A stretch of 43,562 bases of DNA from positions 1 through 43,562 of the forward strand of contig JANNJX010000001.1 of NCBI GenBank assembly GCA_031396005.1. Reading direction: 5' to 3'. How positions within the stretch are numbered: the first letter of the stretch is position 1; every line of letters starts with the position of its first letter. This document shows, piece by piece, positions 1,944 through 17,339 of this stretch. The notes below the pieces were generated by a model, which saw nothing but the letters and a program-made list of their open reading frames with translations, was not told the origin of the DNA and did no database searches. Source of the stretch: Burkholderiales bacterium (GTDB lineage Bacteria; Pseudomonadota; Gammaproteobacteria; Burkholderiales; Burkholderiaceae_C). The position numbers and the translations under genes are program-made.

Positions 1944-2071
1944 TTGTTGGGTGTCCGTCATACTGACTACGATGTATATTATGTCAACTAACGTGCGGAC
2001 CTACATGCAGATGGGCTTCATGAGTTGATGCTTTGGCCGCTGCCCGCGGCACGCCGTGGCAGCATCAGCGC

Positions 2072-3136
2072 ATGCCAATACGACCGCCCGCCTCCGTTCA
2101 GGCTGATCTTTTCGAGGCCGAGGTCCGCCAGGACGACCTACTCACGGCGTGGGCGCCGACTGAAGGCCGCGTTGGCGCAGCGGCAGTCGATGAGACATGG
2201 CGTGAGCTGGCGGCGCAGCTCGAAGCGTCCTTCGGCAAGCGCCTGCACCTCGGCACGTCGTCTTGGTACTTCCCGGGCTGGGCCGGCTTGGTGTGGGACG
2301 AACGGCCGTACAGCGAATCCGATCTGTCACGCCATGGCTTGGCTGCGTATGCGCGCCATCCGCTGCTGCGCACCGTCAGCCTCGACCGCACGTTCTACCG
2401 CGCCATCGACACCGGCACCTACGCCAGGCTGGCCCGGCAAACGCCCGACGACTTCCGCTTCGTCGTCAAGGCGCCCGCCGAGATCACCGACGCGGTGCTG
2501 CGCGCCACCGACAGCGGCGCGCCGCTGCAGGACAACCCGTTTTTTCTCGACGCGCGGCGTGCGTTAGCCACGGCGGTGCAGCCGGCGGTGCAAGGGCTCG
2601 GCGACAAGCTCGGCGCGCTGGTCTTCCAGATCTCGCCGCTGCCTGCCGCGTGGCTGCGCAACGGCACCGCCCTGCTCGACCGCTTCAGTGCGCTGTGGCG
2701 CGCAGTCGTGCCCGCGATGCCGGCCAGCGCGCTGACAGCCCTCGAATTGCGTGACGCACGCATGTTGACGCCGCGCTTGATGGCACATCTGGCGCAGCAT
2801 GGTGTTCGCTATTGCGTCGGCCTGCACGACCGCATGCCAGCGGTCGCGGGGCAGGTGCAGGCGGCGCACGCCGCGGGGGCTGGCGACTTCATCTGCCGCT
2901 GGAACCTGCACCAGGGCCTGCGCTACAACCAGGCCAAGGCGCAGTGGGCGCCGTTCGATCGCTTGCAGGCGCCTGACGTGCAGACGCGCGAGGCCTTAGC
3001 GAGAGCCGTCGTTGCCGCGCTCGCCGACGGCCATCGGGCCTTCGTCACCATCAACAACAAGGCCGAAGGCTCGGCGCCGCTGTCGGTGGTCGAGCTGGCC
3101 AAGTCGATCCTGCGCGAAGCGGGCGTCACAAGATAG
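2072..3136 (+). CDS. DUF72 (UPF0759) family protein
   Basis: The block LHLGTSSWYFPGWAGLVWDE...LRTVSLDRTFY...FRFVVKAP is typical of DUF72. The start is taken at ATG 2072 inside ORF 2033..3136. Confidence 0.8.
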   Translation: MPIRPPASVQADLFEAEVRQDDLLTAWAPTEGRVGAAAVDETWRELAAQLEASFGKRLHLGTSSWYFPGWAGLVWDERPYSESDLSRHGLAAYARHPLLRTVSLDRTFYRAIDTGTYARLARQTPDDFRFVVKAPAEITDAVLRATDSGAPLQDNPFFLDARRALATAVQPAVQGLGDKLGALVFQISPLPAAWLRNGTALLDRFSALWRAVVPAMPASALTALELRDARMLTPRLMAHLAQHGVRYCVGLHDRMPAVAGQVQAAHAAGAGDFICRWNLHQGLRYNQAKAQWAPFDRLQAPDVQTREALARAVVAALADGHRAFVTINNKAEGSAPLSVVELAKSILREAGVTR

Positions 3137-3149
3137 GCGCCCTGCTCTG

Positions 3150-3545
3150 TCAGCCCTTCACCGCGCCGGCAGTCAAGCCCGTGATGATCTGCCGCGCGGC
3201 GACGAAGGTGAAGATCAGCGGTGGAATGGCGATCAGGCTGCCCATTGCCATCACGCGGCTCCAATCGACACCGATGTCGGTGATGAACAGCGACGCAGCG
3301 ACCGGTAGCGTGCGCGTGCCGCGGTCGGTGAGAACGAGCGCCAGGATGAATTCGTTCCACGCGATGCGGAAGGTGAAGATCGACGCCACCGCGAGGCCCG
3401 GCGCCATCAGCGGCAGCAGGACTTTCGTGAAGACACGCAGCGGCCCGCAGCCGTCGATCGCCGCGGCCTCCTCCAGCTCCACCGGCACCTGCAGCACGAA
3501 GCCGTAAAGCAGCCAGATCGTGAACGGCAAGTTCACCGCCACGTA
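3150..3545 (-). pseudogene. C-terminal remnant (~130 aa) of a carbohydrate ABC transporter permease (MalG/UgpE-like)
   Basis: Only the last ~131 residues of ORF 3150..3860 look like a permease: YVAVNLPFTIWLLYGF...ELEEAAAIDGCGPLRVFTKVLLPLMAPGL...WNEFILAL, which includes the EAA loop. Upstream residues in the same frame are Arg/Pro-rich nonsense. No partner ABC genes lie nearby. Confidence 0.7.
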
Positions 3546-3549
3546 CAGC

Positions 3550-3735
3550 ACTCGACGCGAGCCGCTCGCAGGCCTGGACGTCCTTGGCCAGGCGCTGTGA
3601 CTTAGCCGCAGTGGGTGTCGAAGTCTGATAAACGACAGGCGCCGTCGTGGCGCAGCCCGCGGCAGCGCAGGCCCACAGCAGCGCCGTGCAAAGCACCCAG
3701 CGCGGCTGTGCGTGGAGGGGTATCGAAGGTTGCAT
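3550..3735 (-). pseudogene. N-terminal remnant of a lipoprotein gene (signal peptide plus lipobox), truncated at the junction with the permease remnant
   Basis: ATG at 3735 (minus strand) is preceded by AGGAG. The translation MQPSIPLHAQPRWVLCTALLWACAAAGCATT has a lipobox (AAAGC). The frame then runs on without protein-like sequence through the permease remnant in a different frame. Confidence 0.5.
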
Positions 3736-3847
3736 GGCACGCTCCTGTGAGGTTGTGCAGCCACAGAGCGCGGCCGGCCCGCGCTGATACGGCAGCCGAC
3801 CTGCGAGGCGGCGGTGCGACGGAGCTTCCGCCACCTCAGGTCTTCGC

Positions 3848-4471
3848 ATGGTGGCATCATCGGTGCTCAGAAAACGCGAGCGCCCTTTGCAGTACGAAGA
3901 ACTGTCCGACGCCGAACTCATCGCGCGCTGCCGCGAAGGCCACCAGGCCGCATGGAGCACGCTGGTGCGGCGCTTTCAGCGCCTGATCTTCACCGTGCCG
4001 CGGCGCGCCGGCATGTCGCAAGAGCAGGCAGCCGATGTCTTTCAGACCTGCTTCGAGAAGCTCTACCAGCACATCGACCGCATTGACGACGCCGAGCGCG
4101 TGCGCGCCTGGCTGGTCACCACCGCCCGCCGCGAGACGCTCCGCGTGCTGGAGCAGGCGCGCCGCGTGGTCGATCTCTCGCCCAGCGCCGGTGATGGTGA
4201 TGGCGACTCTGGCGATCCGCTCGACCGCTTCGCCGACCCGCATCCGCTGCCCGAGGCGCTGCTAGCCGACTTGCAGGAGCACGACCGCGTGCGCCGAGCG
4301 ATGGAGCGGCTCGACCCGCGCTCGCGCCAGTTGCTCGAACTGCTGTTTTTGCAGGACGAGCCCTTGCCGTATGCCGACATCGCCGCCCGCCTGGGCATTG
4401 CCGAAGGCAGCATCGGCCCGCTGCGCGCGCGCGCGCTGGACAAAGTGCGCGAGTTGTCGAAAAACCTGTAA
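3848..4471 (+). CDS. ECF-type RNA polymerase sigma-70 family factor
   Basis: Region 2 (AWSTLVRRFQRLIFTVPRR...DVFQTCFEKLYQHI...RAWLVTTARRE) and region 4 (LDPRSRQLLELLFLQDEPLPYADIAARLGIAEGSIGPLRARALDKVRE) are both recognisable. Confidence 0.9.
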   Translation: MVASSVLRKRERPLQYEELSDAELIARCREGHQAAWSTLVRRFQRLIFTVPRRAGMSQEQAADVFQTCFEKLYQHIDRIDDAERVRAWLVTTARRETLRVLEQARRVVDLSPSAGDGDGDSGDPLDRFADPHPLPEALLADLQEHDRVRRAMERLDPRSRQLLELLFLQDEPLPYADIAARLGIAEGSIGPLRARALDKVRELSKNL

Positions 4472-4529
4472 CGCCTGTGTATTTTCGGCGCGTGACCCTT
4501 GTCTGTAGCGCATCACAGAGAGCCACATC

Positions 4530-5039
4530 ATGAACACCCCAGCCGATCCCGACGACGCCGCCATTGAGCACCACCTGCGCGCGGGCCGCCAGCTCGAAGA
4601 CGCGCCCGAGGCGGTGATCCAGCGCGTGACGGCGATCTGGCAGCGCCCGGCGCGCGCAGCCGCCGCGCCAGGCTTGCTGCCACGCCTGATTGCGGCACTC
4701 GGCTTCGACAGCAGCACCACGTCGGCGACGGCCCTGGGTGTGCGCACAACCGGCCCCACGACGCGGCAGTTGCTGTACACGGTCGAAGGTCACGGCATCG
4801 ATCTGCGCATCGGCGCGGCCGGTAGCCAATGGGCGTTCAGTGGCCAAGTGCTCGGCCCCGACAGCTATGGCAGCGCGGTCCTGGCTGACGTTAAAGGCCA
4901 GCTGGCTGGCGAAGCGCCGCTTGACGAACTCGGCGAATTCCGCCTGCCGGCTGTTGCGGCCGGCCACTACACGCTGACCTTGCGCCTGCGCAGCATCGAG
5001 ATCGTGTTGCCGCCGATCGACGTGCCGCAGAGCGCCTAG
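4530..5039 (+). CDS. Hypothetical soluble protein; candidate sigma-factor partner or anti-sigma with a C-terminal beta-sandwich-like domain
   Basis: The gene sits directly between the ECF sigma gene and the CHAT gene. I see no transmembrane segment and no HxxxCxxC zinc motif. The C-terminus (GEFRLPAVAAGHYTLTLRL) resembles carboxypeptidase-regulatory-like folds. The function is inferred from position only. Confidence 0.6.
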   Translation: MNTPADPDDAAIEHHLRAGRQLEDAPEAVIQRVTAIWQRPARAAAAPGLLPRLIAALGFDSSTTSATALGVRTTGPTTRQLLYTVEGHGIDLRIGAAGSQWAFSGQVLGPDSYGSAVLADVKGQLAGEAPLDELGEFRLPAVAAGHYTLTLRLRSIEIVLPPIDVPQSA

Positions 5040-5042
5040 GCC

Positions 5043-7859
5043 TTGGCCGACGAGTCGCCGCGCGAACTGGCCCAGCGCCTGACGGCCGCCGATGGCGCAC
5101 CGGCGCTGACGTCGCTAGCGCCGCGATCGGACGACGAGTGGGCGGCGCTGGCTTGGGCGTTGAAAGACGACTGCCAGGCCGCGTGGACCGAGGAGCCACC
5201 GCGAACGCAGCGTTGCGTTGACGTGATTGAAGCACTGCAACAGCGCGTCGAGCATTCTGAGATTGGAGCGGCTGCCGCATGGTGCAGAGGTCTGGCTCTG
5301 TTGGCACAAGGACAAATGGAAGCAACGCTAGCTTGTCTGGACCAGGCGCAACGTAAGTTGATCGCGCTAGGGCAGACGCAACGCGCCGCGCAATCACAGG
5401 TGCCGAGGGTGATTGCGCTGTCGATGTTGGGGCGGCATGACGAGGCGTTGGCGTCAGGGCAGCAAACGCTGGGCGCGCTGATCGCAGTCGCTGACGAATT
5501 CGGAGCCGGCAAAGTAGAACTGAACCTCGGTTGGATGTTGATGCGCCGCGATCGCTATGACCAAGCCATGCAGTGTTTCAAGGGCGCCGCCGTTCGCTTC
5601 GCTCGTGTGGGGGACGAGACGCATTCGATCATGGCCGACATTGGCCAAGCCAGCGCACGCACATGGCGTTTCGAGTTCGACGAAGCGTCGCGGTTGTATG
5701 ACCGTTGCGAAATGCGCGTGGGCTCCCGAGAGCTAGCGTCGTTGCGAGGCGGCATCGACACCAATCGCGGACGCATGGAACTGCATCGTGGCCGGTTCGA
5801 AGCAGCGCTGCGCGCGCTGACGTCGGCTCTGGATCTGGCGCAGACAAATCGCCGGCCGCATGACGTGGCCGAGTCGCGTCGCGATTTGGCCGACGCTTAC
5901 TTGGCTCTGAACCTACTGCCCGAGGCAATTGCGTTGTACGGCCAAACGATCGACGGCTGCATCGCTTTAGAGGCGCCGGTGGAGCGCGCTTGGGCGGAGG
6001 TCCAGCGCTCACTGGCATGGGTGCGATGCGGCGACGCGCAGCGCGCGGCCGACGGGCTGACGCAGGCCCGCGTCTTGTTCGAAGCCGACGACAACAGGGT
6101 GGGCATCGCACTGACGGACCTGTGCAGCGCAGCGCTGTCGTTGCAGATGGGCTTGGCCGGCATGGCGCTGCGCGATGCGCGTGCCGCCGCGCGCGCGCTG
6201 GAAGCCACCGGTGTTGACGGATGGCGGCGCGAGGCTGAATTGCTGGTGGCCGATGCGCTCGCAGCCTTGGGTCAGATCCCAGCAGCACGCGCGATGTACG
6301 AGCAGGTGCTCGACGCCGCAGCCGAGTTGCCGCAGTTGCTTGCGCCTTGCCACACCGCATTGGGGTTGCTGCTATATAGCGAAGGGCGGCGCGACGCTGC
6401 TCGCGAGCAGCTCAGAAGCGCGCTCGTTCACACCGAACTGCAACGCGACGCGCTGCCCAGCGACGAGTTCCGGACCGCCTTCGGCGCCGACAAGCAGCGC
6501 CCCTACGACGCGCTGATCGATCTCGCGTTCGACAGCCCCGCTACCGACGCCGGCTGGCGTTTGCTGGAAGCGATCGAGCAGGCGCGCGCGCCTGCTTTGC
6601 GCAGCGCTCTGCAGCGCCGAGACACTTCGGCGGCAATCGACGAAGCCAAGCGCGAACAGCTGCGTTGGCTGCAAGCCCAGTGGCAGCAGGCCATTGCCGA
6701 GCAGGATCTCGAGCGTGCGTCGCAACTGCAAGGTCGCACGCGTGCGCTCGAACACGAGTTTCTAGAGCAGGTGCGGCGCGCGCAGGCGGCCGCTGGCGCC
6801 ACGGTCGCGGCGCAGCCTTTGCGCTTGCCGGCGGACGAAGCGCAAGTGCGCGGTCTGGTGCCCGAGGGTACCGCGGTCGTCGTCTATGCGCGGGTCGGCC
6901 CACGCCTGGCCGCTTGTGTGGTTACGCGGGAGCGCATCGATTCTGTCGTCGTCTCGGCTGACGGCGTGGCCGACCGCATCGAGAAGCTACGCTTTCAAAT
7001 CGACTCGCTGCGTTTCGGCGCGCCAGCGTTGCGCGCGCATGCGTCGCAGATGGCACAGCGCTGCATTGCGCATCTGCAAGCGCTGCACGCCAGCGTGTGG
7101 CAACCGCTGGCCCGGTTCGTGTGCGGCTATGAGCGCATCGTCATCGTGCCGCACCGCGAGTTGCACTACCTGCCGTTCGCCGCCTTGCACGACGGGCAGA
7201 CCAGCTTGATCGAGCGTCACGAGATCAGCCTCGCGCCGGGGCTGGCGCTGTGGCTCGCCGAGACGGAAACAGTTCGCCCCTGGCGCCACGTTGCAGCGCT
7301 AGGCGCTGGCGGCGATGCTTTGCCGCATGTTGCGCGGGAGGTGCGCGCTGTCGCGGCGGCTTTTCAAGCCCAGCCTGGCGGCTCGGCGGTGATGCATCTC
7401 GAAGCGCAGGCCACGCAGGCGGCGCTGCGGGCGTCGCTGGCCGGTGCCGACGTGCTGCACCTGGCCTGTCACGGCCAGTTCCGCGCCGACAGCCCGTACT
7501 TCTCTGCGCTGCAGCTCGCCGATGGGCCGCTGACAGTGCGCGATGCCGCCGAGCTGCCGCTGGCCGCTCAACTCGTCACCTTGTCGGCCTGCGAGACTGG
7601 CCTGAGCAAGGTCGCGCCCGGCGACGAACTGCTCGGCCTGCTGCGCGGCTTTCTGATGGCCGGTGCACCACGGGTGTTGTGCACGCAGTGGACGGTCGAT
7701 GACGCGAGCACCGCCGTCCTGATGGCGCAGTTCTACCGCAGCGTGCTCGGCGGTGCGCGGCCGGCCATGGCGCTGCGCGCAGCGCAGCGGGCATTGGCCT
7801 GCGAGCAACCGCACCCACACCACTGGGCCGCATTCGCCTTGCACGAGCGGGGGCATTGA
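5043..7859 (+). CDS. TPR-repeat / CHAT-domain (caspase-like) protease, 938 aa
   Basis: The N-terminal ~650 aa are helical and TPR-like. The C-terminal CHAT domain carries the His/Cys dyad motifs HLACHG (His codon 7470-7472) and LSACETG (Cys codon 7590-7592), and ends ...HWAAFALH. The start is TTG, 4 nt after the upstream stop. Confidence 0.85.
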   Translation: MADESPRELAQRLTAADGAPALTSLAPRSDDEWAALAWALKDDCQAAWTEEPPRTQRCVDVIEALQQRVEHSEIGAAAAWCRGLALLAQGQMEATLACLDQAQRKLIALGQTQRAAQSQVPRVIALSMLGRHDEALASGQQTLGALIAVADEFGAGKVELNLGWMLMRRDRYDQAMQCFKGAAVRFARVGDETHSIMADIGQASARTWRFEFDEASRLYDRCEMRVGSRELASLRGGIDTNRGRMELHRGRFEAALRALTSALDLAQTNRRPHDVAESRRDLADAYLALNLLPEAIALYGQTIDGCIALEAPVERAWAEVQRSLAWVRCGDAQRAADGLTQARVLFEADDNRVGIALTDLCSAALSLQMGLAGMALRDARAAARALEATGVDGWRREAELLVADALAALGQIPAARAMYEQVLDAAAELPQLLAPCHTALGLLLYSEGRRDAAREQLRSALVHTELQRDALPSDEFRTAFGADKQRPYDALIDLAFDSPATDAGWRLLEAIEQARAPALRSALQRRDTSAAIDEAKREQLRWLQAQWQQAIAEQDLERASQLQGRTRALEHEFLEQVRRAQAAAGATVAAQPLRLPADEAQVRGLVPEGTAVVVYARVGPRLAACVVTRERIDSVVVSADGVADRIEKLRFQIDSLRFGAPALRAHASQMAQRCIAHLQALHASVWQPLARFVCGYERIVIVPHRELHYLPFAALHDGQTSLIERHEISLAPGLALWLAETETVRPWRHVAALGAGGDALPHVAREVRAVAAAFQAQPGGSAVMHLEAQATQAALRASLAGADVLHLACHGQFRADSPYFSALQLADGPLTVRDAAELPLAAQLVTLSACETGLSKVAPGDELLGLLRGFLMAGAPRVLCTQWTVDDASTAVLMAQFYRSVLGGARPAMALRAAQRALACEQPHPHHWAAFALHERGH

Positions 7860-7978
7860 CGCGCCGGTCCAATTGTTGTCGGCCGCGGGGGTGACCCTAC
7901 TCGTGACAAATCGTCACGCAGGTGTACGGCCAGCGGCAATCGCGGCTCTGTGCGGATCGACAAGAAGGAGAAGGCCCG

Positions 7979-9559
7979 ATGAAAACCCGCTGCACTGCCA
8001 TGCCCGCCCTTTGGCCGCTGCTCGCCGCTTTGCTGTTGGCGGCTTGCGGCGGTGGCGAAGACGGTACCGCGGCGATCGTGGCCCTCACGCCCGAGCCATC
8101 GCTTGCAACACGCATGCAGGCACTGGCCACCACGAACGAACGCGACGATGAGGACGACGATGCGTCCGGTTGCGGAGATACGCAAGGAGATGCGATGAAC
8201 CCGACCCGACTTTCTGCTTTGTCGATGGCTTTTGCCGCCACCCTGGCTGCCTGTGGCGGCGGTGGGGGTGGGGGTGACGGCGACAGCGTGGCACCGCCGC
8301 CGTCGGCTGCTACGCCAGCACCCCCCAACGCCAGCGTGGCAGGCGAGATCGTCGTGCAACTCAACACGGGCAACGACATCAACGCGCTCGCTGTGGCGTA
8401 TCAGCTGACCGTGGTCGATCAGTTCGGCAAGCGGCCAATCTGGCGTTTGCGCGTTGCAGTAGGCACTGTCGCCGACACGACGATCGCGTCGCTGCGCAAC
8501 GATCCGCGCGTGCGCTTCGCTGAAGCCAACGTCGAGAACGAAACGCCCGAAGGACGTCAACGCTCGGTCTGGGCCGTAGGCGGCGACGCCGGCGCCTACG
8601 CCAAGCAATGGGCCCCGGCCTCGCTGCGCCTGCCCGAAGCGCACGCGACGAGCCTCGGCGCCGGCATGCGCGTCGCCGTGCTCGACACCGGCCTCGATCT
8701 CGCGCATCCCGCTCTCGCCGATCGCCTGGCCCGCAACGGCGCCGGCGCATTGCTCGGCCGCGACTTCGTCGATGACGATGCCGACCCGAGCGAGGTCGGC
8801 GCCGGCACCGACCCCGGCTTTGGCCACGGCACGCATGTCGCCGGCCTGGTCAGCCTCATCGCGCCGCAGGCCACGCTGATGCCAGCGCGCGTGCTCGACC
8901 GCGCCGGCCGCGGCAACGTCTGGGTGCTGTCAGAAGCGCTGGCCTGGGCGGTGGACCCCGACGCCAACCCGGCCAGCGACGACGGCGCGCATGTCGTCAA
9001 CCTGAGCCTCGGCACGACGCAGACGACGAACCTGCTGCGCACCGCCGTGGCGCTCGCCAACTGCGACTTCGATGACGACGACGACGAGTTCGAAGACGCC
9101 GGCTTCGACGATGACAGGACACGCTGCGCCAACAAGTTCGGCGCCGTCGTGATCGCCGCCGCCGGCAACGACGGCAGCGACACGCAGCAGCAGTTCCCAG
9201 CCGCCGAAGCGGTGCCGGGATCGTTGTCGGTGACGGCGCACACCGAGCAGCGCACGTTGGCCCCGTTCGCCAACTTCGGCTCGTGGGTCGAAGTCGCCGC
9301 GCCCGGCGACAAGATCATCAGCACTTTCCCCGGCGGCGGCTACGCCACGTGGAGCGGCACCTCGATGGCCGCGCCGCTGGCTTCCGGCACCGCGGCGCTG
9401 GTGCTCGCCACCTATCCTGATCCGCGCGGTGTGCTGCCGTTGGACGTGGCGCAACGCCTGCTCACGCGCACCGCGCCGTTGTGCGGCACGTCGTTCCGCA
9501 AGATCGACGCCGCCGCCGCAGCCACCGACACGCAGGCGCCCGAGCCGCCGTGCCCGTAG
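7979..9559 (+). CDS. Subtilisin-like (S8) serine peptidase, lipoprotein
   Basis: The catalytic triad blocks are VAVLDTGLD, HGTHVAG and GTSMAAP, plus AAGNDG. AAGGAG precedes ATG 7979, followed by the lipobox LLLAACGG. A second in-frame SD+ATG+lipobox lies at 8195. Confidence 0.85.
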   Translation: MKTRCTAMPALWPLLAALLLAACGGGEDGTAAIVALTPEPSLATRMQALATTNERDDEDDDASGCGDTQGDAMNPTRLSALSMAFAATLAACGGGGGGGDGDSVAPPPSAATPAPPNASVAGEIVVQLNTGNDINALAVAYQLTVVDQFGKRPIWRLRVAVGTVADTTIASLRNDPRVRFAEANVENETPEGRQRSVWAVGGDAGAYAKQWAPASLRLPEAHATSLGAGMRVAVLDTGLDLAHPALADRLARNGAGALLGRDFVDDDADPSEVGAGTDPGFGHGTHVAGLVSLIAPQATLMPARVLDRAGRGNVWVLSEALAWAVDPDANPASDDGAHVVNLSLGTTQTTNLLRTAVALANCDFDDDDDEFEDAGFDDDRTRCANKFGAVVIAAAGNDGSDTQQQFPAAEAVPGSLSVTAHTEQRTLAPFANFGSWVEVAAPGDKIISTFPGGGYATWSGTSMAAPLASGTAALVLATYPDPRGVLPLDVAQRLLTRTAPLCGTSFRKIDAAAAATDTQAPEPPCP

Positions 9560-9581
9560 TCGCGCACGCAGCCACAAAACA

Positions 9582-9612
9582 AAGCGCGGGACGAGAGTCC
9601 CGCGCTTTTTTC
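9582..9612 (+). terminator. Rho-independent terminator after the S8 peptidase gene
   Basis: The sequence AAGCGCGGGA-cgagag-TCCCGCGCTT forms a GC-rich stem and is followed by TTTTTTCTT. Confidence 0.8.
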
Positions 9613-9766
9613 TTCTGCGGCGCACAGCCTTTCGAGGCGACACAAGCAAAGTGGATCGTCACCGAAACATCATCGTTGAAAGCAGGTGTTTGCGTCTTGT
9701 ACGAAAGGCGGTGCGCAGGTCTCTGTGGGGCGTGCGCAAAACGCGCCGCCATCCAAGGAGACCTTC

Positions 9767-10858
9767 ATGAACCCTGTTTCTATCGCCGCCGTCCAGTCGG
9801 CCAAGTGGGCTTTCACCACCCGCCATGTGCTGCGCGAGGACATCGCACGCGTTCTGCCCGCCTACGTGGCGGGCGAGGCGGGCCAGCTGCTGTTGGCGGA
9901 AGTCACGCAGCTGGGCCAGCACGACGGCGTGCAGCTCGAATCCGGCCGCCGCGCGCAGCTCTATGTAGGCGACCGCGTTGTCGTCTGCCTCGGCAACCGC
10001 TATGCACCGGACCAGTTCGAAGGCATTGCGCAGATCGAAGGCAGCGAGGGCAACCACGTCTGCGAGCTGCTGGCCGGCGGCGGCGTTGCCGGCGTCGTGC
10101 GCCATCGCCACGGCCGCATGCGCGCGGCCACTGCCTTGCGGGTCTTGGGTGTGCTGGGCGGCGCCGATGGGCAGCCGATCAACATCGCGAAGTACGCCTT
10201 GACGTTGCCTGATCCCACGCTCTTCGATACACCGTCGATTCCGGTCATGGTGGTGGTGGGCAGCTCGATGAACGCAGGCAAGACCACTGCCTGCGCCAGC
10301 CTGATTCACGGCCTGGCCCGCGACGGCTGGCGGGTCGGCGCGGTCAAGGTCACCGGCACTGGTTCGTTTGGCGATGTGCAGAGCTATGCCGACGCCGGCG
10401 CCGCCGAGGTGCTGGACTTCACCGATGCGGGCCTGGCGTCCACCTATCGCGTCGAGCCTTCGGTGCTGGAGCGCACGTCGCGACGTTTGATCGCCGAACT
10501 CCAAGCCCGCGGCTGCGACGTGGTCGTGGTCGAGGTCGCTGACGGGCTGTTCCAGCAAGAGACTGCGGCGCTGCTGGCCTCGCCGACCTTGCGCGGCACG
10601 CTGGGGCAGGTCGTCTTCGCGGCGGCCGATGCGATGGGCGCCGTGGCCGGCGTGCAGCGCTTACGGGGGCTGGGCTGGAAGGTGCGTGCCTTCACCGGGC
10701 TCGTCACGGCATCGCCGCTCGCCGCCTCAGAAGCAGGGGCCGCTTTGCGCTCGGTCGACACGGCGGTGCCTTGCTTCTCGCGCGACGAGCTGCGCAACCC
10801 GCTCGGTGCTCGTCGCCTGGTGGGCATGCCGCAACGCGCACTGCCGATGGCAGCCTGA
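9767..10858 (+). CDS. P-loop protein with DUF1611-like architecture (function unknown)
   Basis: AAGGAG lies 8 nt before ATG 9767. The Walker A-like block VVVGSSMNAGKTTACASLIHGLARDGWRVGAVKVTGTGSFGD follows an N-terminal ~190-aa domain. The layout recalls DUF1611/MobB-type NTP-binding proteins. Confidence 0.7.
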   Translation: MNPVSIAAVQSAKWAFTTRHVLREDIARVLPAYVAGEAGQLLLAEVTQLGQHDGVQLESGRRAQLYVGDRVVVCLGNRYAPDQFEGIAQIEGSEGNHVCELLAGGGVAGVVRHRHGRMRAATALRVLGVLGGADGQPINIAKYALTLPDPTLFDTPSIPVMVVVGSSMNAGKTTACASLIHGLARDGWRVGAVKVTGTGSFGDVQSYADAGAAEVLDFTDAGLASTYRVEPSVLERTSRRLIAELQARGCDVVVVEVADGLFQQETAALLASPTLRGTLGQVVFAAADAMGAVAGVQRLRGLGWKVRAFTGLVTASPLAASEAGAALRSVDTAVPCFSRDELRNPLGARRLVGMPQRALPMAA

Positions 10859-10864
10859 AGTCGC

Positions 10865-12601
10865 GTGTTTCGTCCTTCGCTGGAACAACCTGTGATGTCG
10901 ACCACGCCCGCCACGCCCAGCCTGCCACCCCTGTTCGAGCCGCCGCGGCGCCGCCTCCTGCTCACGCTGGTGGGCCTTGGTCTATTGCAGGCGGGCCTTG
11001 CGGCCGCGGCGGCATTGGGCGTGCGCGAGCTGTTCAATGCACTGGGCGGCGGCAGCGCGCTATCGACGCTGATCAACCGAGGGCCGCTGGCGCCCGTGAT
11101 GGCCCTGGGCGGCGTGGCCATGATCGCCGCGTTGGCGATGATCGCGCTGCGCCAGTGGGCGGGCCGGCTGGCCGAGTCGCTGGGTCAGCAGTACGTCGCA
11201 GCCGCGCGCCTGGTGCTGCTGGAGCACCTGTTCAAGCTGCCGCCACGACATCACCAGCGCATGCGTCACGGCCACTTGATGGCGCGCCTGACGGGCGACC
11301 TTGGCGCACTGCATCGGTGGGCGGGGCGCGCGGTGGCACCTGTGCTGGTCGGCACCGCGAGTTTTGTGTTGCTGGTGGCGACGCTGGCATGGATGGCACC
11401 TTGGGTGGCACTCGGCACGCTGCTCGCATGTCTGCCGCTGTTCGGCTGGGCGTGGTTGATCTCGGCGCGGCTGGAACGCGCATTGCGGGCTGAGCGGGCT
11501 CAACGCTGGGCGCTGGCCGGTCAGGTGGGAGAGCGGCTGGCAGAAGCTGCCGTCGTGCAGGCCAACGCGCAGGCCGGTCGAGAACTGCGCCGGCTTCGGC
11601 GCCGCCAGCAGCGGCTGCACGACGCCGCCGTGCTGCGCGCGCGCGAAGCGGCGCTGTTGAAGGCGCTGCCGCCGGCCGTGGGGACGCTGATGCTCGGTGT
11701 GCTGGCCGGTTGGGGCAGTTGGCAGGTGGCCACGGGTGCCTGGAGCAGCGGCTCGCTGGCAGGTTTGCTGACGCTGCTCAGTCTGGTGCTGGCGCCGCTG
11801 CGCGACTTCGCACTCGGACTCGGCGGGTGGCGCCATTGGCGCGTCAGCTGCGAGAAGCTGACGAGCTTTCTCCGCAACGCGCCGTTGCCCACCAGCGCGC
11901 CGCAGGCTGAAGCACAGCTGCCCGGCAACGGGCTGCTGCGTCTGGATGGGCTCGCCGTGTTCGGCGGCATGGCACCTGTCACGGCCGTGCTGAACCCTGG
12001 CGACACGCTGGCCGTGCAAGGCGCCAGTGGCAGTGGCAAGAGCGCACTGCTGGAGACCGTGGCGGGCTTGCTCGTTCCTGCGGCGGGCCGCGCGCTGCTG
12101 GATGGCGAGGACAGCATGACGCTCGGTCCCACCGTCCGCGAACGACGCATCGCCCTTGTCGCGAGCGATCTGCCCTTGCTGCGCGGCAGCGTGGCGGGCA
12201 ACCTGCGCTACCGTCGCAAGGCCGCTTCGCGCGAGGCGATGCACAGCTCGCTGCTGGCGGCCGGCTTGCGCGCACTTGCCGGCGGCGCCGCGCTCGACCT
12301 CGGCAGTCCAGTGGCTGAAGGTGGGCGCAATTTGCCGCGTTTGCTGCGGGCCCGTTTGACCTTGGCCAGGGCACTCGTGGACACGCCTGCGGTACTGCTG
12401 ATCGACGACTTCGACGATTTGCTCGAAGGCGAGGCCGCGGCCGACGCGCCCTTGGCTGGGCTGCTGCGCGAGCCGCCCTGCACGATCGTGATTGCCACGC
12501 GTCGGCCGGAGTGGGCGACGCGCTGCGCGCAGCGTGTGCTGCTCGAACCGGTGATCGTCGCGGCCAACCCGCACAAGCTGGAGTTGGCGCATGCAGCTTG
12601 A
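10865..12601 (+). CDS. ABC exporter-type fused permease/ATP-binding protein with a degenerate nucleotide-binding domain
   Basis: An N-terminal domain of about six transmembrane segments is followed by an NBD with Walker A GASGSGKS (12020-12043). The other catalytic motifs are altered (see findings). The start may be GTG 10865 or ATG 10895. Confidence 0.8.
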   Translation: MFRPSLEQPVMSTTPATPSLPPLFEPPRRRLLLTLVGLGLLQAGLAAAAALGVRELFNALGGGSALSTLINRGPLAPVMALGGVAMIAALAMIALRQWAGRLAESLGQQYVAAARLVLLEHLFKLPPRHHQRMRHGHLMARLTGDLGALHRWAGRAVAPVLVGTASFVLLVATLAWMAPWVALGTLLACLPLFGWAWLISARLERALRAERAQRWALAGQVGERLAEAAVVQANAQAGRELRRLRRRQQRLHDAAVLRAREAALLKALPPAVGTLMLGVLAGWGSWQVATGAWSSGSLAGLLTLLSLVLAPLRDFALGLGGWRHWRVSCEKLTSFLRNAPLPTSAPQAEAQLPGNGLLRLDGLAVFGGMAPVTAVLNPGDTLAVQGASGSGKSALLETVAGLLVPAAGRALLDGEDSMTLGPTVRERRIALVASDLPLLRGSVAGNLRYRRKAASREAMHSSLLAAGLRALAGGAALDLGSPVAEGGRNLPRLLRARLTLARALVDTPAVLLIDDFDDLLEGEAAADAPLAGLLREPPCTIVIATRRPEWATRCAQRVLLEPVIVAANPHKLELAHAA

Positions 12602-13466
12602 GTACGTGCAGCCAGAAGTGCGGACGGGCGGCAACGGCAACGACGCGCGGCCGCAACCCGAGCTGCGACGGCTGCACGAGGACCCGCACCAGCGCTACTG
12701 GATCTGCCGGCCGCGCTTGCGGCACGAGCCGCAAAGCACACCAGCCGGCGTGCTCGTTTCAGTGCATGGCATCTCGCGCAACGCGGGTGCGCACGCGCGG
12801 GTCTTGGCAGCGCTGGCCGATGAACTCGGCTTGGTGTTGGTTGCGCCGCACTTCTCGCGCAGCCGCTTTCCCGACTACCAGCGCATGGGCCGCCCCGAGC
12901 GCCTGGGGCCTGGCGGGCGGGCAGATCACATGCTGCTGCGCATCGTGCACGCGGTGCGCACCGAGCTCGGCCTGCCTGCGCAGCCGTTCCTGCTGGTGGG
13001 GCACTCCGGCGGCGCTCAATTTGCCTTGCGTTTCGCGCTCGTGCATGCAGCGCAGATCGCGGGGTATGCGCTGAGTGCGCCGGGCAGCTACTGTTGGCCC
13101 GATGGGGCGCGACGTTTTCCGCATGGAGCGGCGCCGAGCCGTGACTTCCCCGACCTGCGCCCGGACTTGGTGGCGCTGCTGCAGCGACCCAGCCTCGTGC
13201 TTGTCGGCGCGCGCGATGTGCAACGCGACGACGCACTGCGCCAAGGCGAACGCATCGACGCCCAGCAAGGCCGCACCCGCATTGAACGTGCCCAACGCTG
13301 GGTGGCCGCGATGCAGCAATGCGCTTCAGAACAGGGCATGGCCGCGCCGTTGACGCTGCAGGCCGTCGCTGGTTGTGGCCATGGCTTCAGTGAGCTGGCT
13401 CGTGCGCCAGCTTGGCGCGGCGCGCTGCGACAACACCTCGTGTCAAGCCTCGCACGACGGCCTTGA
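12591..13466 (+). CDS. Alpha/beta-fold hydrolase (esterase / PHB-depolymerase-like)
   Basis: The nucleophile elbow is GHSGG in FLLVGHSGGAQFAL, and a late GCGHGF block follows. The gene overlaps the ABC gene by 11 nt, consistent with an operon. Confidence 0.75.
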   Translation: MQLEYVQPEVRTGGNGNDARPQPELRRLHEDPHQRYWICRPRLRHEPQSTPAGVLVSVHGISRNAGAHARVLAALADELGLVLVAPHFSRSRFPDYQRMGRPERLGPGGRADHMLLRIVHAVRTELGLPAQPFLLVGHSGGAQFALRFALVHAAQIAGYALSAPGSYCWPDGARRFPHGAAPSRDFPDLRPDLVALLQRPSLVLVGARDVQRDDALRQGERIDAQQGRTRIERAQRWVAAMQQCASEQGMAAPLTLQAVAGCGHGFSELARAPAWRGALRQHLVSSLARRP

Positions 13467-13580: not shown

Positions 13581-14135
13581 TCACAGCCGCGCGCACTGGT
13601 CTTCCTTGCTCGGCGAAGAGTTGCCGCTGCCGGTCGGCGCCGGGATGTTCTCCTTGCACTGCATGTTGCCGTTCATGCGATTGCCGTTGAATGTTGCGCC
13701 GGCCATGTTCTGAAAAGCCTGCAAGCTGCCGCCGATCGTGTTGCCCGCCGCCGCAATCGGCCCGGTGTTGGACTGGAACTGCAAGTCGCCCTTGATGCGC
13801 GAGTGATCGATTGAGCTGCCACCGCCTTGCACGATCTGCACCGAGCCGCCGACGATCGAGTAGCCGGCCACGCCGACGAAGGCGGCGCCTTCGGCCTGCA
13901 CGTTGCCGTTGACCGAGACACCACTGGCGCGCAGCGTGGCGCCGCGGCCGACGACCACGCTGCCGTTCAGGCGCGTGCGGTCGAGCACGCAGGTCGCGCC
14001 GTCTGGTACGAACAGGTTGTCGAGCGCCACCGCGCCGACGGCGCCGGTGCAGCGGAACTCTTCGGCCAACACGGGGGCGCTGGCCAGCGTCGCGGCCGCA
14101 GCCAACGCGCTCATCACCACAAACTTGGTCTTCAT
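13581..14135 (-). CDS. Secreted beta-helix-like repeat protein (hypothetical)
   Basis: AAGGAG precedes ATG 14135. The signal peptide is MKTKFVVMSALAAAATLASAPVLA. Repetitive G-x-V/I-x-G-N/S units (GSVVVGRGATL, VSVNGNVQAEG, IVGGSVQIVQG, IGGSLQAF) and paired cysteines at both ends follow. Confidence 0.75.
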   Translation of the reverse strand: MKTKFVVMSALAAAATLASAPVLAEEFRCTGAVGAVALDNLFVPDGATCVLDRTRLNGSVVVGRGATLRASGVSVNGNVQAEGAAFVGVAGYSIVGGSVQIVQGGGSSIDHSRIKGDLQFQSNTGPIAAAGNTIGGSLQAFQNMAGATFNGNRMNGNMQCKENIPAPTGSGNSSPSKEDQCARL

Positions 14136-14756
14136 CTCTTGCTCCTTGGTTGAAAACAAACTGATTTGGGGCTTGTTGCATCGAGCGCTCAACGCGATTC
14201 GCCCACTGCACAGACGGCGCATAGCCTTGCCGCGTACAGCGCACTTCGGCTACTTGTGTTTGTTTGTCAGCGCGGGGTACAGACTTGTCATGTGTCCGGT
14301 CTGTGAATTGAGCGACAACTCCAGGGACCCACCAGTAGCTCCGCAACGCCGCTCCACACGCCGAAAGTGCAAGAGTTTCGACCTGACGTCTGCCAACGGG
14401 TGGTCCACGAACCCCGATTGCCGCGGCGGGTGCACCCTGATGGCCGAGAACCGTAGTTCAACGTCGGCAATGCGGACACGCAGGCAGGTTGACATCGCCC
14501 CTCGGATCCAGCTGGAGTGGTCGCGTCTCATCACGTTGTCGCGGTAACTGGCCTGCATCGATAAGCACGGTCTGACTCTCCGTGCGAGCGGTGCCCGAAA
14601 GTCTTGTCAGCTTTCTTCAAGCACGTCACGAGCCTGACATCGCCAGGCCCTAGCTTGCGACGCGCGCAGCGTCGCCGGCATCCTGCCCGCGATCGGCTGG
14701 GACGCGCTTGGGAGTGCCTGCATATGTCTCATCGATGCCATCGCAGCGGAACGCCC

Positions 14757-17339
14757 ATGCGCCGCCTGCTCACCGCTCTGTTGACGTTTGGCGGCCTTGC
14801 GCTGTCCGCGCCTGCCGGCGCGGCAGTGATGATCAGCCAGGTGTATGGCGGCGGCGGCAACGCCGGCGCGCCGCTCAACAACGACTTCGTTGAGCTACAC
14901 AACAACGGCTCGACCGCGGTCAGCCTCACCGGCTGGTCGGTGCAGTACGCGTCCGCCGCCGGCACCACCTGGTCGGGCGCACAACTGACGGCCCTGTCCG
15001 CATCGATCCCGGCCGGCGGCTACTATTTGGTTCAGCTCGGCGCCGGTGCCAATGCGCCGGCACCGCTGCCCTCGCCCGATGCCGTCGGCACCACCGCGAT
15101 GAGCGCAACGGCCGGCAAGGTGGCGCTGGTCAACAGCACGACCGCGCTCGCCGGCGCCTGCCCGAGCAGCGACCCAAGCGCCTGCCCGAGCAGCGACCCA
15201 AGCGTGATCGACTTCGTCGGCTACGGCGCCACCGCCAGTTGCTCTGATGCCGCACCGGCCCCGGCACCGTCGAACACCACCGCACTGATCCGCGCCAGCG
15301 TCGGCAACAGTTGCGTGGACAGCGGCAACAACAGCGCCGACTTCGCCGCGCTGGCGCCCTTGCCGCGCAACACCGCCGCGCCGGCACAACCTTGCCGCGG
15401 TGGTGGTGGCGGGCCGACGCCACTCGACGCGAAGGTCTATGAGATCCAGGGCAGCGGCGCGCAGAGCGCGCTGGCCAGCCGTCTCGTCACCACCAGCGGC
15501 GTGGTCACGCGGATCAACAACAACGGCTTCTTCATGCAGGACCTCAGCGGCGACGGCAACCCGGCCACGTCCGACGGTATCTTTGTCTTCATCGGCACGA
15601 CGGCGTTTCCCGCGGTCGCCGTCGGCAACCTGGTCAGCGTGACGGCGAGAGTGACCGAGTTCAACACCGGAGTGCTGCCGAGCGCGGCCACGCCCACGCC
15701 GACGGTGACCGAGTTGACCTCCGTCAGCAGCGTGACCCAGGTCGGCAGCGGCTACACGATCGCGCCCACCTCTGTGAGCCTGCCCGAGCCGGTCGAGGGC
15801 GATCTAGAGCGCTACGAAGGCATGCTGGTCACGTTGATCGGGCCGTTCACGATCGGCCAGAACTTCTTCCAGGGCCGCTATGGCCAACTGACGCTGGGCT
15901 TCAACGGCCGGCTCGAGACTCCGACCAACCGCTATCGCCCGGGCAGCACGCAGGCGCTGGCGCTGGCTGACGAGAACGCCCGCCGCCGCATCCTGCTCGA
16001 CGACGGCAGCAGCCTGCAAAACCCCAACCCCACGCCCTATCTCGACTTGGCGAGCGCGCTGCCGCGCGCCGGCGACACGGTCGGCTCGATCACCGGCGTG
16101 ATCGACTTCGGCCTGGCCACCAACATCAACCCCGGCCTGGGCGACTACAAGATCCATCCCACGGTGATGCCCACGTTCACGATTGCCAACCCGCGCGCGA
16201 GCGCGTCGGCGCCGGTCGGCGGCAGCATCAAGGTGGCCAGCTTCAACGTGCTGAACTTCTTCACCACGTTCACGGACGGCAGCACAGCCGACGGCCAGAC
16301 CAACCAGGGCTGCGCGCTCGGCAGCACGGTCGCCGCGGCCAACTGCCGCGGCGCCGACAACCTGGCCGAGTTCAACCGCCAGCGCGCCAAGATCGTCGAG
16401 GCCATGGCCGCGCTCGATGCCGACGCGCTGGGCCTGATGGAGATCCAGAACAACGGCAATGTGGCGGCGCAGAACCTGGTCGATGCCCTGAACGCGCGCG
16501 TCGGCTCATCGACCTATGCGGTGACGGCGTTGCCGGCGCAGAGCACGGGGACGGATGCAATCCGGGTGGCGATCATCTACAAGCCGGCGCGGCTGGCTCC
16601 CGTGGGCGCGCCGGTCAGCGACCCCGACCCGATCAACAATCGGCCCACCCTGGCACAGACCTTCGTCGCCAAGGGCGAGCGCTTCACGCTGGTTGTGAAC
16701 CACCTCAAGTCGAAGGGCAGTTGTCCGGCGCCCACGGACGCCGATGCCGCCGGCAATCTCGACAGTGGCGACGGCCAGGGTTGCTGGAACGCGCAGCGGC
16801 TGGCGCAGGCGCAGCGGCTGCGCACCTTCGTGGCCAGCCTGCAGGCCCTGTCGGGCAGCAGCAGCGCGCTGCTGATCGGCGACTTCAACGCTTATGCGCA
16901 GGAAGACCCGATCTACAACCTGACCAGCAGCGGCTATGTCGATCAGGTCGGGCGCTTCAACCCCTTCGGCTACTCCTACGTCTTCGACGGCGCGGCCGGC
17001 CGGCTCGATCACGCCATCACCACCGGTGCGCTCTCGACCAAGGTGACGGGGGTCGCACACTGGCACATCAATGCCGACGAAACCTCGCTGGCCGACTACA
17101 ACCTGGAATTCAAGGCGCCGGCCACCAACTGCGGCGGCCTGTGCCCGCCGGATCCCTACAGGGCCACGCCGTATCGCTCTTCGGATCACGATCCGGTGGT
17201 CGTGGGCTTGACTTTGCTGGCGGTGGCGACTGACAAGGAATCGTGCAAGGCGGACGGCTGGACGTCGCTCTACCGTGCCGATGGTTCAGGGTTCAAGAAC
17301 CAGGGCGATTGCGTTCAGTACGTGAACACGGGGAAGTAG
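14757..17339 (+). CDS. ExeM/NucH-family extracellular nuclease (lamin-tail domain plus endonuclease/exonuclease/phosphatase domain)
   Basis: The signal peptide is MRRLLTALLTFGGLALSAPAGA. The LTD-like block is ISQVYGGGGNAGAPLNNDFVELHNNG...GWSVQYASAAG. The EEP blocks are VASFNVLNFF, LGLMEIQNN, VVNHLKSKG, LIGDFNAY and SSDHDPVV. Confidence 0.85.
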   Translation: MRRLLTALLTFGGLALSAPAGAAVMISQVYGGGGNAGAPLNNDFVELHNNGSTAVSLTGWSVQYASAAGTTWSGAQLTALSASIPAGGYYLVQLGAGANAPAPLPSPDAVGTTAMSATAGKVALVNSTTALAGACPSSDPSACPSSDPSVIDFVGYGATASCSDAAPAPAPSNTTALIRASVGNSCVDSGNNSADFAALAPLPRNTAAPAQPCRGGGGGPTPLDAKVYEIQGSGAQSALASRLVTTSGVVTRINNNGFFMQDLSGDGNPATSDGIFVFIGTTAFPAVAVGNLVSVTARVTEFNTGVLPSAATPTPTVTELTSVSSVTQVGSGYTIAPTSVSLPEPVEGDLERYEGMLVTLIGPFTIGQNFFQGRYGQLTLGFNGRLETPTNRYRPGSTQALALADENARRRILLDDGSSLQNPNPTPYLDLASALPRAGDTVGSITGVIDFGLATNINPGLGDYKIHPTVMPTFTIANPRASASAPVGGSIKVASFNVLNFFTTFTDGSTADGQTNQGCALGSTVAAANCRGADNLAEFNRQRAKIVEAMAALDADALGLMEIQNNGNVAAQNLVDALNARVGSSTYAVTALPAQSTGTDAIRVAIIYKPARLAPVGAPVSDPDPINNRPTLAQTFVAKGERFTLVVNHLKSKGSCPAPTDADAAGNLDSGDGQGCWNAQRLAQAQRLRTFVASLQALSGSSSALLIGDFNAYAQEDPIYNLTSSGYVDQVGRFNPFGYSYVFDGAAGRLDHAITTGALSTKVTGVAHWHINADETSLADYNLEFKAPATNCGGLCPPDPYRATPYRSSDHDPVVVGLTLLAVATDKESCKADGWTSLYRADGSGFKNQGDCVQYVNTGK
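15156..15203 (+). repeat. Perfect 24-bp tandem duplication inside the nuclease gene
   Basis: GCCTGCCCGAGCAGCGACCCAAGC occurs twice back to back (15156-15179 and 15180-15203). It encodes ACPSSDPS-ACPSSDPS. Confidence 0.9.

Follow-up and report, generated by a model that had tools for sequence, protein, structure and literature searches.

A conserved cassette of an ECF sigma factor, an anti-sigma homologue, a predicted TPR-CHAT protease and an S8 lipoprotein in Burkholderiales, probably a protease-gated gene switch

In the type III-E CRISPR systems the TPR-CHAT protease Csx29, together with Cas7-11, cleaves Csx30, which is the inhibitor of an extracytoplasmic function (ECF)-like sigma factor, CASP-sigma; the N-terminal fragment of Csx30 seems to need further degradation. 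In Myxococcus xanthus, DdvA is the zinc-binding anti-sigma (ZAS) factor of the sigma factor DdvS and is fused to a separase/craspase-like TPR-CHAT part with a canonical His-Cys dyad. It was proposed that DdvA cuts its own linker before RseP acts, and a further peptidase gene is present in the operon. Here we describe a locus from a Burkholderiales bacterium which can be compared with both systems. It lies at positions 3848-9559 (+ strand) of a 43,562-nucleotide stretch of contig JANNJX010000001.1 (this whole stretch is called the window below) and consists of four co-oriented open reading frames, coding for an ECF sigma factor, a 169-aa partner protein, a TPR-CHAT protein and an S8 family lipoprotein. 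The four-gene regulatory cassette is real, and it is probably a protease-gated gene switch.

In the reading which we favour and hold to be somewhat probable, the genes would make up a cytoplasmic ECF signalling cassette, in which the CHAT protein inactivates the anti-sigma factor, the sigma factor is thereby freed and the S8 protein is one of the outputs. A proteolysis-gated switch is the best reading of the locus because the cassette is conserved, the partner belongs to an anti-sigma family and the catalytic dyad of the CHAT protein is intact. The mechanism is favoured also because there are precedents for it, namely the cleavage of a sigma inhibitor by Csx29 and the fusion of a ZAS domain to TPR-CHAT in DdvA.

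Work on ECF sigma factors has already recorded the neighbourhood itself. For the ECF54 sigma factors of Actinobacteria, carboxypeptidase, subtilase and CHAT domains were described in conserved neighbours, and proteolytic control was proposed (Huang et al. 2015, according to the review PMC8999054). In the passages of PMC8999054 and of Casas-Pastor et al. (2021) that deal with this group, ECF54 is described as having no anti-sigma factor, and the reclassification lists a 4Fe-4S protein as ECF54 neighbour and no clear regulator (Casas-Pastor et al. 2021). The same three neighbour domains are found in our cassette, conserved in 47 loci, so that the likeness is one of neighbour domains. The difference is that the protein which could be called carboxypeptidase-like is here an anti-sigma homologue. 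The literature search returned no paper describing a stand-alone CHAT/anti-sigma system. The new points of the present analysis are the anti-sigma homology of the partner and its short form in Burkholderiales, the occurrence of the cassette across phyla, the promoter-like motif, the probable lack of sigma autoregulation and the putative local regulon.

Gene order and conservation of the cassette

The sigma gene (3848-4471, +), the partner gene (4530-5039, +), the TPR-CHAT gene (5043-7859, +, with a TTG start) and the S8 gene (7979-9559, +) are separated by gaps of 58, 3 and 119 nt. A sequence-only reading of the same DNA had listed four co-oriented genes at these positions, with the CHAT start 4 nt past the stop of the partner, and the verified reading frames, domains and coordinates agree with it. 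The first gene codes for a protein of 207 aa with the Sigma70_r2 and Sigma70_r4 domains (Pfam) and without r3, which is the domain composition of the ECF (group IV) sigma factors. Its score against TIGR02937 (sigma70-ECF, cut-off 42.9) is 86.5 bits. Neither a transmembrane (TM) segment nor a signal peptide was detected in it by hydropathy.

For each GTDB species one genome was scanned with a sequence pattern, which gave 57 loci, nearly all of them from the Rubrivivax/Ideonella/Roseateles group of Burkholderiales. Cultured carriers are among them, for instance Ideonella, Rubrivivax and Pseudaquabacterium pictum (L017, L018, L027, L036). The sigma, partner and CHAT genes were in one order in every one of the 57, with the sigma gene some 0.65 kb before the partner gene and the CHAT gene immediately after it. 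The S8 gene was the next one in all 47 loci where the contig is long enough, the other ten loci ending at a contig end. Identities of the cassette proteins fall as low as 35-45% across the loci; the sigma factor is 42-77% identical to the product of the same-position sigma gene in 56 loci. Such a gene arrangement is far beyond chance, and conservation of the neighbourhood across Burkholderiales, which had been put forward earlier as a check, is borne out.

The same arrangement was also present in Acidobacteriota metagenomes and genomes and in one unassigned assembly, there with a longer form of the partner, which is described below. The gene downstream of it in these distant cassettes codes for a TPR-CHAT protein of 925-948 aa. 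In the distant locus L058 this protein is 39% identical to ours over its full length and the sigma factor is 48% identical, and a partial CHAT gene following the partner homologue P0216 shows 37% identity. The fourth gene of the distant cassettes codes for an S8 subtilase of 700-870 aa with a fervidolysin-like prodomain and a signal peptide. As judged from these comparisons, the four-gene unit is ancient and crosses phyla.

Two variations of the arrangement were observed. In L009 and L020 a second, sigma-less set of anti-sigma, CHAT and S8 genes directly precedes the cassette, some 5 kb before its sigma gene, with the motif discussed below before its anti-sigma and its S8 gene, and one sigma factor may serve two inhibitor/protease sets there. 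In L056 (2776-5000, on a contig of a metagenome-assembled genome) the CHAT gene is cut to a fragment of about 270 aa and the S8 gene starts only 1.4 kb past the anti-sigma gene, which could be decay or an assembly artefact.

The 169-residue partner and the TPR-CHAT protein

The partner contains no TM segment (its best 19-residue hydropathy window is 1.16) and no signal peptide, and the zinc-binding HxxxCxxC motif is missing from it. Hydropathy and sequence thus agree with the sequence-only reading, in which a protein without TM segment and zinc anti-sigma motif had been described. Its sole Pfam match was a weak one to CarboxypepD_reg at the C-terminus. The family of the partner is large: it has 85 close clusters, and an exhaustive profile search yielded 4653 representatives with E<=1e-3, of which 333 reach E<=1e-30. 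A length of about 203 aa, with 35-40 additional N-terminal residues, is common among the members (long forms). These are mostly from Pyrinomonadaceae, Acidobacteriota, they match Pfam zf-HC2 and they are named 'anti-sigma factor RsiW' (JGI) or 'zf-HC2 domain-containing protein'; HxxxCxxC was present in 17 of 20 sampled long-form relatives. When the profile of the long forms was compared with the PDB, it matched the anti-sigma domains of RsiW (E=2.5e-4) and DdvA (E=1.4e-3).

The partner can be aligned collinearly with the long forms at about 40% identity, and since the profile of these matches RsiW and DdvA, we call it an anti-sigma homologue. According to the alignment it starts within helix 3 of the class-I anti-sigma domain and retains helix 4 (LEDAPEAVIQRV), its two N-terminal helices corresponding to the end of helix 3 and to helix 4. 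The DAPExVIQRA segment, which aligns with helix 4 of RsiW, is the most conserved stretch of the helical region in both the short and the long forms. The short N-terminus of the partner is genuine, because an in-frame stop codon is situated 21 nt before its ATG, and the short form is common to all Burkholderiales members. The family thus possesses the zinc motif, and the Burkholderiales branch has lost it. As regards membership in the class-I (ZAS-type) group, homology and adjacency to an ECF sigma gene (58 nt) were found, while the full four-helix domain with HxxxCxxC was not. The partner is therefore best described as a soluble, N-terminally reduced class-I (ZAS-type) anti-sigma homologue with an immunoglobulin (Ig)-like beta-sandwich. 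The earlier suggestion that the small protein is of the sigma-restraining type is in line with its place in an anti-sigma family by profile and with its zf-HC2 relatives.

The AlphaFold2 model of the partner (mean predicted local distance difference test score, pLDDT, 82.8) contains two low-confidence N-terminal helices, a variable linker and a confident beta-sandwich at residues ~50-169. Loop 64-78 of the sandwich carries A68, G70 and R72 and is flanked by D60 and R79. All five residues are invariant across the short and long forms, and the loop is exposed and less confident in the model. A Foldseek search of the model against the PDB gave only generic Ig-like sandwiches (E>=0.02) and no Csx30, nothing relevant was found in the PDB with the sequence profile of the partner, and the search for annotated relatives on plasmids gave no match for the partner.

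The locus shares with the RsiW-SigW and RseA-SigmaE systems the position of the anti-sigma homologue gene right after an ECF sigma gene, and the release of the sigma factor by a dedicated protease is the general logic of those systems. However, RsiW and RseA are membrane proteins cut by site-1 and site-2 proteases, whereas the partner is predicted to be soluble, has a C-terminal Ig-like sandwich and, in Burkholderiales, lacks helices 1-2 and the zinc ligands.

The third gene codes for a predicted TPR-CHAT cysteine protease of 938 aa, which matches several TPR families and the CHAT domain (E=1.5e-56, Pfam). An intact His/Cys dyad had been pointed out in it from the sequence; the numbering His810/Cys850 is correct, and both residues are invariant in 48 of 48 CHAT homologues, with identities as low as 38%. 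By hydropathy the protein has neither a TM segment nor a signal peptide and is predicted to be cytoplasmic. Its AlphaFold2 model (pLDDT 93.5, predicted TM-score, pTM, 0.92) shows about 14 helical hairpins in front of the CHAT fold, and the Foldseek search of the model returned human separase (1.6e-17), Csx29 in Craspase (6e-17) and DdvA (2.5e-15). On the basis of the model, the protein falls within the separase/Craspase/DdvA structural class and is a member of none of these families. Separase, which is among the best structural matches, likewise combines a long region of helical repeats with a caspase-like domain after it. In eukaryotes it serves the cell cycle as a protease, without any sigma factor, and at about 14% identity the likeness is one of fold only. 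The plasmid matches of the CHAT protein were non-orthologous, and the best of them adjoins a two-partner secretion system and type VI secretion system genes, not a sigma gene.

The distance of 4 nt between the stop of the anti-sigma gene and the CHAT start suggests translational coupling of the two genes. Stop and start lie within a few bases of each other in most loci and often overlap, across phyla. In the window and in L001, L002 and L005 the two genes are in one reading frame, with a TAG and one codon between them (5037-5045 in the window). Read-through at this point would yield a partner-CHAT fusion; the frames differ in other loci, and the shared frame is maybe due to chance.

In DdvS-DdvA, as here, a ZAS-type domain and a TPR-CHAT part go together with an ECF sigma factor, and it is the N-terminal domain of DdvA that the long-form profile matches. 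DdvA, on the other hand, is one TM polypeptide with a periplasmic TPR-CHAT part, while in our cassette the two parts are encoded by two genes and their products are predicted to be soluble and cytoplasmic.

The comparison with Craspase was the starting point of the sequence-only reading, in which the locus was taken for an analogue of the Craspase output arm without CRISPR. As a functional analogy this is reasonable, since in both cases a TPR-CHAT protein, a small soluble inhibitor (here predicted) and an ECF-type sigma factor are co-encoded, motifs lie within the locus and the CHAT folds are similar. As a statement on descent or fold it does not hold, the partner being ZAS-type and the CHAT protein about as near to separase or DdvA as to Csx29. 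Cas7-11, CRISPR RNA, csx31 and the array have no counterpart in the cassette, and its activator cannot be a target RNA bound by Cas7-11; the inhibitor would be ZAS-derived with a beta-sandwich and not Csx30, and the protease stays below the Csx29 cut-off.

It could still be supposed that the cassette is a descendant or a dispersed fragment of a type III-E Craspase, with the CHAT protein as the Csx29 orthologue, the partner as the equivalent of Csx30 and the rest elsewhere in the genome. The correspondence of the roles (protease, small partner, ECF sigma) would fit such an origin, and the CHAT protein does give a weak match to the Csx29 family of NCBIfam and weak sequence matches to Csx29-type PDB chains, both in the catalytic region. 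The NCBIfam match (NF041237), however, reached only 48.5 bits against a cut-off of 300, with an alignment confined to the catalytic region, and separase and DdvA rank beside Csx29 in Foldseek. The fold of the partner is generic Ig-like and its homologues are ZAS anti-sigma factors. Pfam, PADLOC and repeat scans agree that the window contains no cas gene (Cas7-11, csx30/csx31) and no CRISPR array, as had been noted before, and PADLOC gave no defence match for the sigma factor, the partner or the CHAT protein. In about 1 Mb of sequence around the 57 cassettes no CRISPR array was found either, the sole flag being an uninspected 3-copy tandem repeat in L023. A type III-E origin is thus considered very improbable. 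The partner alone had also been considered as a Csx30 analogue by descent or fold, and this was ruled out by the generic Ig-like Foldseek matches and the ZAS homologues.

The reduced form of the partner allows a different assignment of roles, which we regard as unlikely. The short protein may no longer be an anti-sigma factor but an adaptor or regulator of the CHAT protein, which would itself degrade or process the sigma factor, or the complex may free the sigma factor conformationally without cleavage of the partner. The short form has indeed lost most of the anti-sigma domain, and proteases of the separase type, which the CHAT model matches, are held by pseudosubstrate inhibitors such as securin. 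Yet what is retained, DAPExVIQRA, is the very segment that is most conserved in the helical region and aligns with helix 4 of RsiW, and the sigma factor has neither an unusual extension nor a conserved linker by which it could be taken for a substrate. An anti-sigma role of the partner is thus preferred in what follows.

A promoter-like motif and the genes behind it

The spacers of the cassettes were searched for shared bipartite words in comparison with shuffled controls, and a position weight matrix (PWM) was then built from 75 sites. The word TGTAT[CT]-N17-CTCTGT in the CHAT-S8 spacer was well above the shuffled controls. The overall motif, TGTAY-N17-(C/G)TCTGT, precedes the anti-sigma/CHAT genes and the S8 gene in most loci: with the PWM it was found at the junction of the sigma and anti-sigma genes in 54 of 56 loci and in the CHAT-S8 spacer in 36. 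Many extra sites were obtained just past the S8 gene, and seven related loci have a divergent site upstream of the sigma gene. Among the distant cassettes, which had not been used for training, the motif was present before S8 in all five loci holding an S8 gene and before the anti-sigma gene in 3 of 5 (L058, L060/L061 and L064), none being found in the latter place at PWM >=12 in L062/L063. The downstream half of the motif is CACTGT in the Acidobacteriota loci. With its fixed spacing of 17 nt, its build of two blocks and its positions, the motif fits an ECF-type promoter.

In the window the PWM gave two sites, 4473-4518 (+) with a score of 22.1 and 3751-3796 (-) with 17.8, the maximum in shuffled sequence being 13.5. 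The pattern GTAY-N18-STCTGT has six matches in the window where 0.04 would be expected, all of them intergenic and each oriented toward a gene. The strongest copy, P1 (TGTATT-N17-GTCTGT, 4478-4506, +, pattern match 4479-4506), ends 24 nt before the start of the anti-sigma gene. P2 (TGTACG-N17-CTCTGT, 7922-7951, +, pattern match 7924-7951) was obtained with the pattern and with a flexible scan and lies before the S8 gene; its -35 half is degenerate in comparison with the consensus of the family. In 36 loci the position equivalent to P2 holds a canonical motif, and one likewise precedes S8 in the Acidobacteriota and L058 cassettes.

Upstream of the sigma gene in the sense direction the motif was absent in every locus scanned with the PWM, and in the search for an autoregulatory promoter in this place no bipartite word exceeded the shuffled controls. 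The sigma gene is therefore presumably not autoregulated and would have a promoter of its own without the motif. This differs from ddvS, which is autoregulated, and from the DdvS promoters, GTAA-N16-CGT. When this DdvS-type promoter was considered as a candidate for the cassette motif, no resemblance was found.

The S8 protein (526 aa) is predicted to be an exported subtilisin-like lipoprotein, matching Peptidase_S8 (1e-35) and a fervidolysin-like prodomain (1.7e-9) in Pfam. The Asp/His/Ser triad is intact and the triad motifs are present in 48 of 48 orthologues. Of the four proteins of the cassette only this one has a signal peptide and a lipobox (LAAC). Its translation almost certainly begins with the ATG at 7979, which is accompanied by an AAGGAG ribosome-binding site and the lipobox; the GTG at 7922 is unlikely to be the start, because the promoter-like motif occupies 7924-7951. 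The sequence-only reading had left two roles to the S8 peptidase, an output or a second protease of the cascade. Since the protein is predicted to be exported, has its own copy of the motif and could not reach a cytoplasmic anti-sigma factor, the role of output is retained and that of the second protease is given up.

A peculiarity of the S8 gene is that two lipoprotein-type signals follow each other within 7979-8270, MKTRC...LLLAAC and, 72 residues on, MNPTR...ATLAAC. They are split by an acidic stretch, AAGGAG stands before each of them, and both are kept in L001 and L002, the closest relatives. Alternative starts with two isoforms, or a retained internal hydrophobic segment, could be meant by this.

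The remaining four copies of the motif lie around the cassette. The divergent one (GTATC-N17-CTCTGT, 3763-3790, -), detected both by PWM (17.8) and by pattern, faces the 5' remnant of a lipoprotein gene (3544-3735, -, ATG at 3735) of about 64 codons with signal peptide and lipobox, which is a candidate member of the regulon truncated here. Past about residue 65 the translation of the remnant resembles out-of-frame junk and only residues 28-59 of the L003 homologue align with it, while L003 and L004 have an intact lipoprotein of 145-170 aa in this position. The whole region 3150-3735 (-) looks like the trace of a rearrangement, since the lipoprotein remnant abuts what is only the 3' third of a gene for a MalG/UgpE-type ABC permease (~3150-3555, 72 bits).

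On the other side of the cassette, a candidate motif found by pattern (GTACG-N17-CTCTGT, 9699-9726, +) precedes three genes (9767-13466), assigned by Pfam to a MobB-like P-loop protein (9767-10858), an ABC exporter (10865-12601) and an alpha/beta hydrolase (12591-13466); the ATG at 9767, with an AAGGAG site, lies past this motif. The same trio is found near the cassette in L003, L009, L020, L022 and L053, and in L053 the operon of the trio stands behind a motif and has an extra first gene coding for 356 aa.

Two further candidates, again pattern matches, stand back to back in one intergenic region (14210-14304) and face outward. The one at 14210-14237 (-) precedes the gene of a secreted 184-aa protein with a signal peptide (13581-14135, -), homologues of which are motif targets in L010, L016 and L020. 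The other (14277-14304, +) points to the gene of a secreted LTD and endonuclease/exonuclease/phosphatase (EEP) protein (~14757-17339), about 450 nt from its likely start at 14757, where a signal peptide is encoded. The leader in between (14304-14757) contains no Rfam match and no convincing small open reading frame. Within the LTD/EEP gene a perfect 24-bp tandem duplication (15154-15204) encodes a repeated ACPSSDPS.

In other loci, the families recurring behind the extra motif sites include the 184-aa family, GT28-like glycosyltransferases, DUF4956, DUF5648/DUF5666 and S8 paralogues, which are mostly secreted or envelope proteins. The copies of the motif thus appear to mark a local regulon consisting mostly of secreted proteins.

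From this regulon it could also be argued that the CHAT and S8 proteins are both effectors (in stress, predation or cell death) of an ordinary sigma/anti-sigma pair and that the CHAT protein has no role in the control of the sigma factor. With the motif upstream of it, the CHAT gene would itself be a target of the sigma factor, and the regulon is rich in secreted proteins. But a soluble anti-sigma factor without a sensor domain needs some route of inactivation, and the anti-sigma and CHAT genes stay adjacent across phyla while the other members of the regulon vary. Besides, CHAT proteins act on sigma control in Craspase, where this was shown, and such a role is proposed for DdvA. A purely effector role of the CHAT protein is accordingly regarded as quite improbable, and its participation in sigma release is preferred.

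The operon is closed by an intrinsic terminator (9581-9608), a strong hairpin whose 12-bp stem contains 8 GC pairs. It has a T tract on either strand and could work in both directions. The Rfam scan of the window and a sigma-70 promoter scan of 3000-11000 gave zero matches. The other content of the window is ordinary chromosomal: TatD, ankyrin and DUF72 proteins, transporters, oxidoreductases and regulators. In the window (2033-3136) and also in L060 (16076-16810) and L062 (16999-17733), both Acidobacteriota, the cassette has a DUF72 gene not more than a few kb away, which is probably a coincidence. Unrelated to the cassette, the gene at 31647-35018 codes for an unusual fusion of 1123 aa, with multicopper-oxidase/cupredoxin domains and a glyoxal/galactose-oxidase-like C-terminal half.

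Proposed mechanism and its bearing on CHAT proteases

The working of the cassette could be pictured as follows. The sigma factor would be made from its own motif-less promoter and held inactive by the 169-aa protein, whose beta-sandwich and invariant loop would dock to the co-translated TPR-CHAT protein. A cue read by the helical-repeat part of the latter (~600 residues) would activate His810/Cys850. The CHAT protein would then cut the anti-sigma factor, the candidate sites being the linker (~38-47) and the A68-G70-R72 loop, the anti-sigma factor would be degraded and the sigma factor released. From TGTAY-N17-(C/G)TCTGT the free sigma factor would transcribe the anti-sigma and CHAT genes, which would give a negative feedback and reset the switch, as well as the S8 gene and variable nearby genes. 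Separase and the metacaspases cut after Arg, and by analogy G70-x-R72 might be speculated to be the cut site. We infer the binding of the sigma factor by the short form, the contact between the anti-sigma factor and the CHAT protein, the cleavage and its site, and the reading of the motif by the sigma factor.

Several observations weigh against this mechanism. The short form has neither helices 1-2 nor half of helix 3 of the anti-sigma domain, and the N-terminal helices which it does have were modelled at pLDDT 54-67. It is through the missing part that a class-I anti-sigma domain contacts region 4 of the sigma factor. The partner may thus bind the sigma factor weakly, or only jointly with the CHAT protein. 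In none of 120 CHAT homologues was an anti-sigma part found naturally fused to the CHAT part. As for the motif, the copy before S8 and three others in the window read GTAC where the consensus is GTAT, and the PWM score of the S8 copy is low; that the cassette sigma reads the motif would follow from its position and co-conservation only.

A stricter version of the same mechanism can be put forward tentatively, as possible but on the whole doubtful. The cytoplasmic CHAT protein would be sensor and protease dedicated to the soluble ZAS-derived anti-sigma factor, in a widespread, CRISPR-independent pathway. As the helices for sigma region 4 are lost in the Burkholderiales branch, the sigma factor would be sequestered there solely in a ternary complex of sigma, anti-sigma and CHAT proteins, and a single cleavage of the invariant loop would set off the regulon of secreted proteins, S8 among them. 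If true, this would be the first stand-alone pathway from a bacterial CHAT protein to a sigma factor and a model for CHAT activation without Cas7-11.

CHAT proteases are abundant in bacteria, and to our knowledge few of them have a known substrate or trigger. The cassette, with its thousands of relatives, would be a reconstitutable circuit comprising a sensor, a substrate, a transcription factor and a reporter promoter, and it would let one ask what activates a stand-alone TPR-CHAT protein. If the ECF54 neighbours belong to the 169-aa family, their 'carboxypeptidase-like' neighbour would be the missing anti-sigma factor of that group. As for the bacteria which carry the cassette, the exported subtilisin and the other secreted proteins of the putative regulon may have to do with remodelling of the envelope, with the scavenging of nutrients or with other organisms that are encountered.

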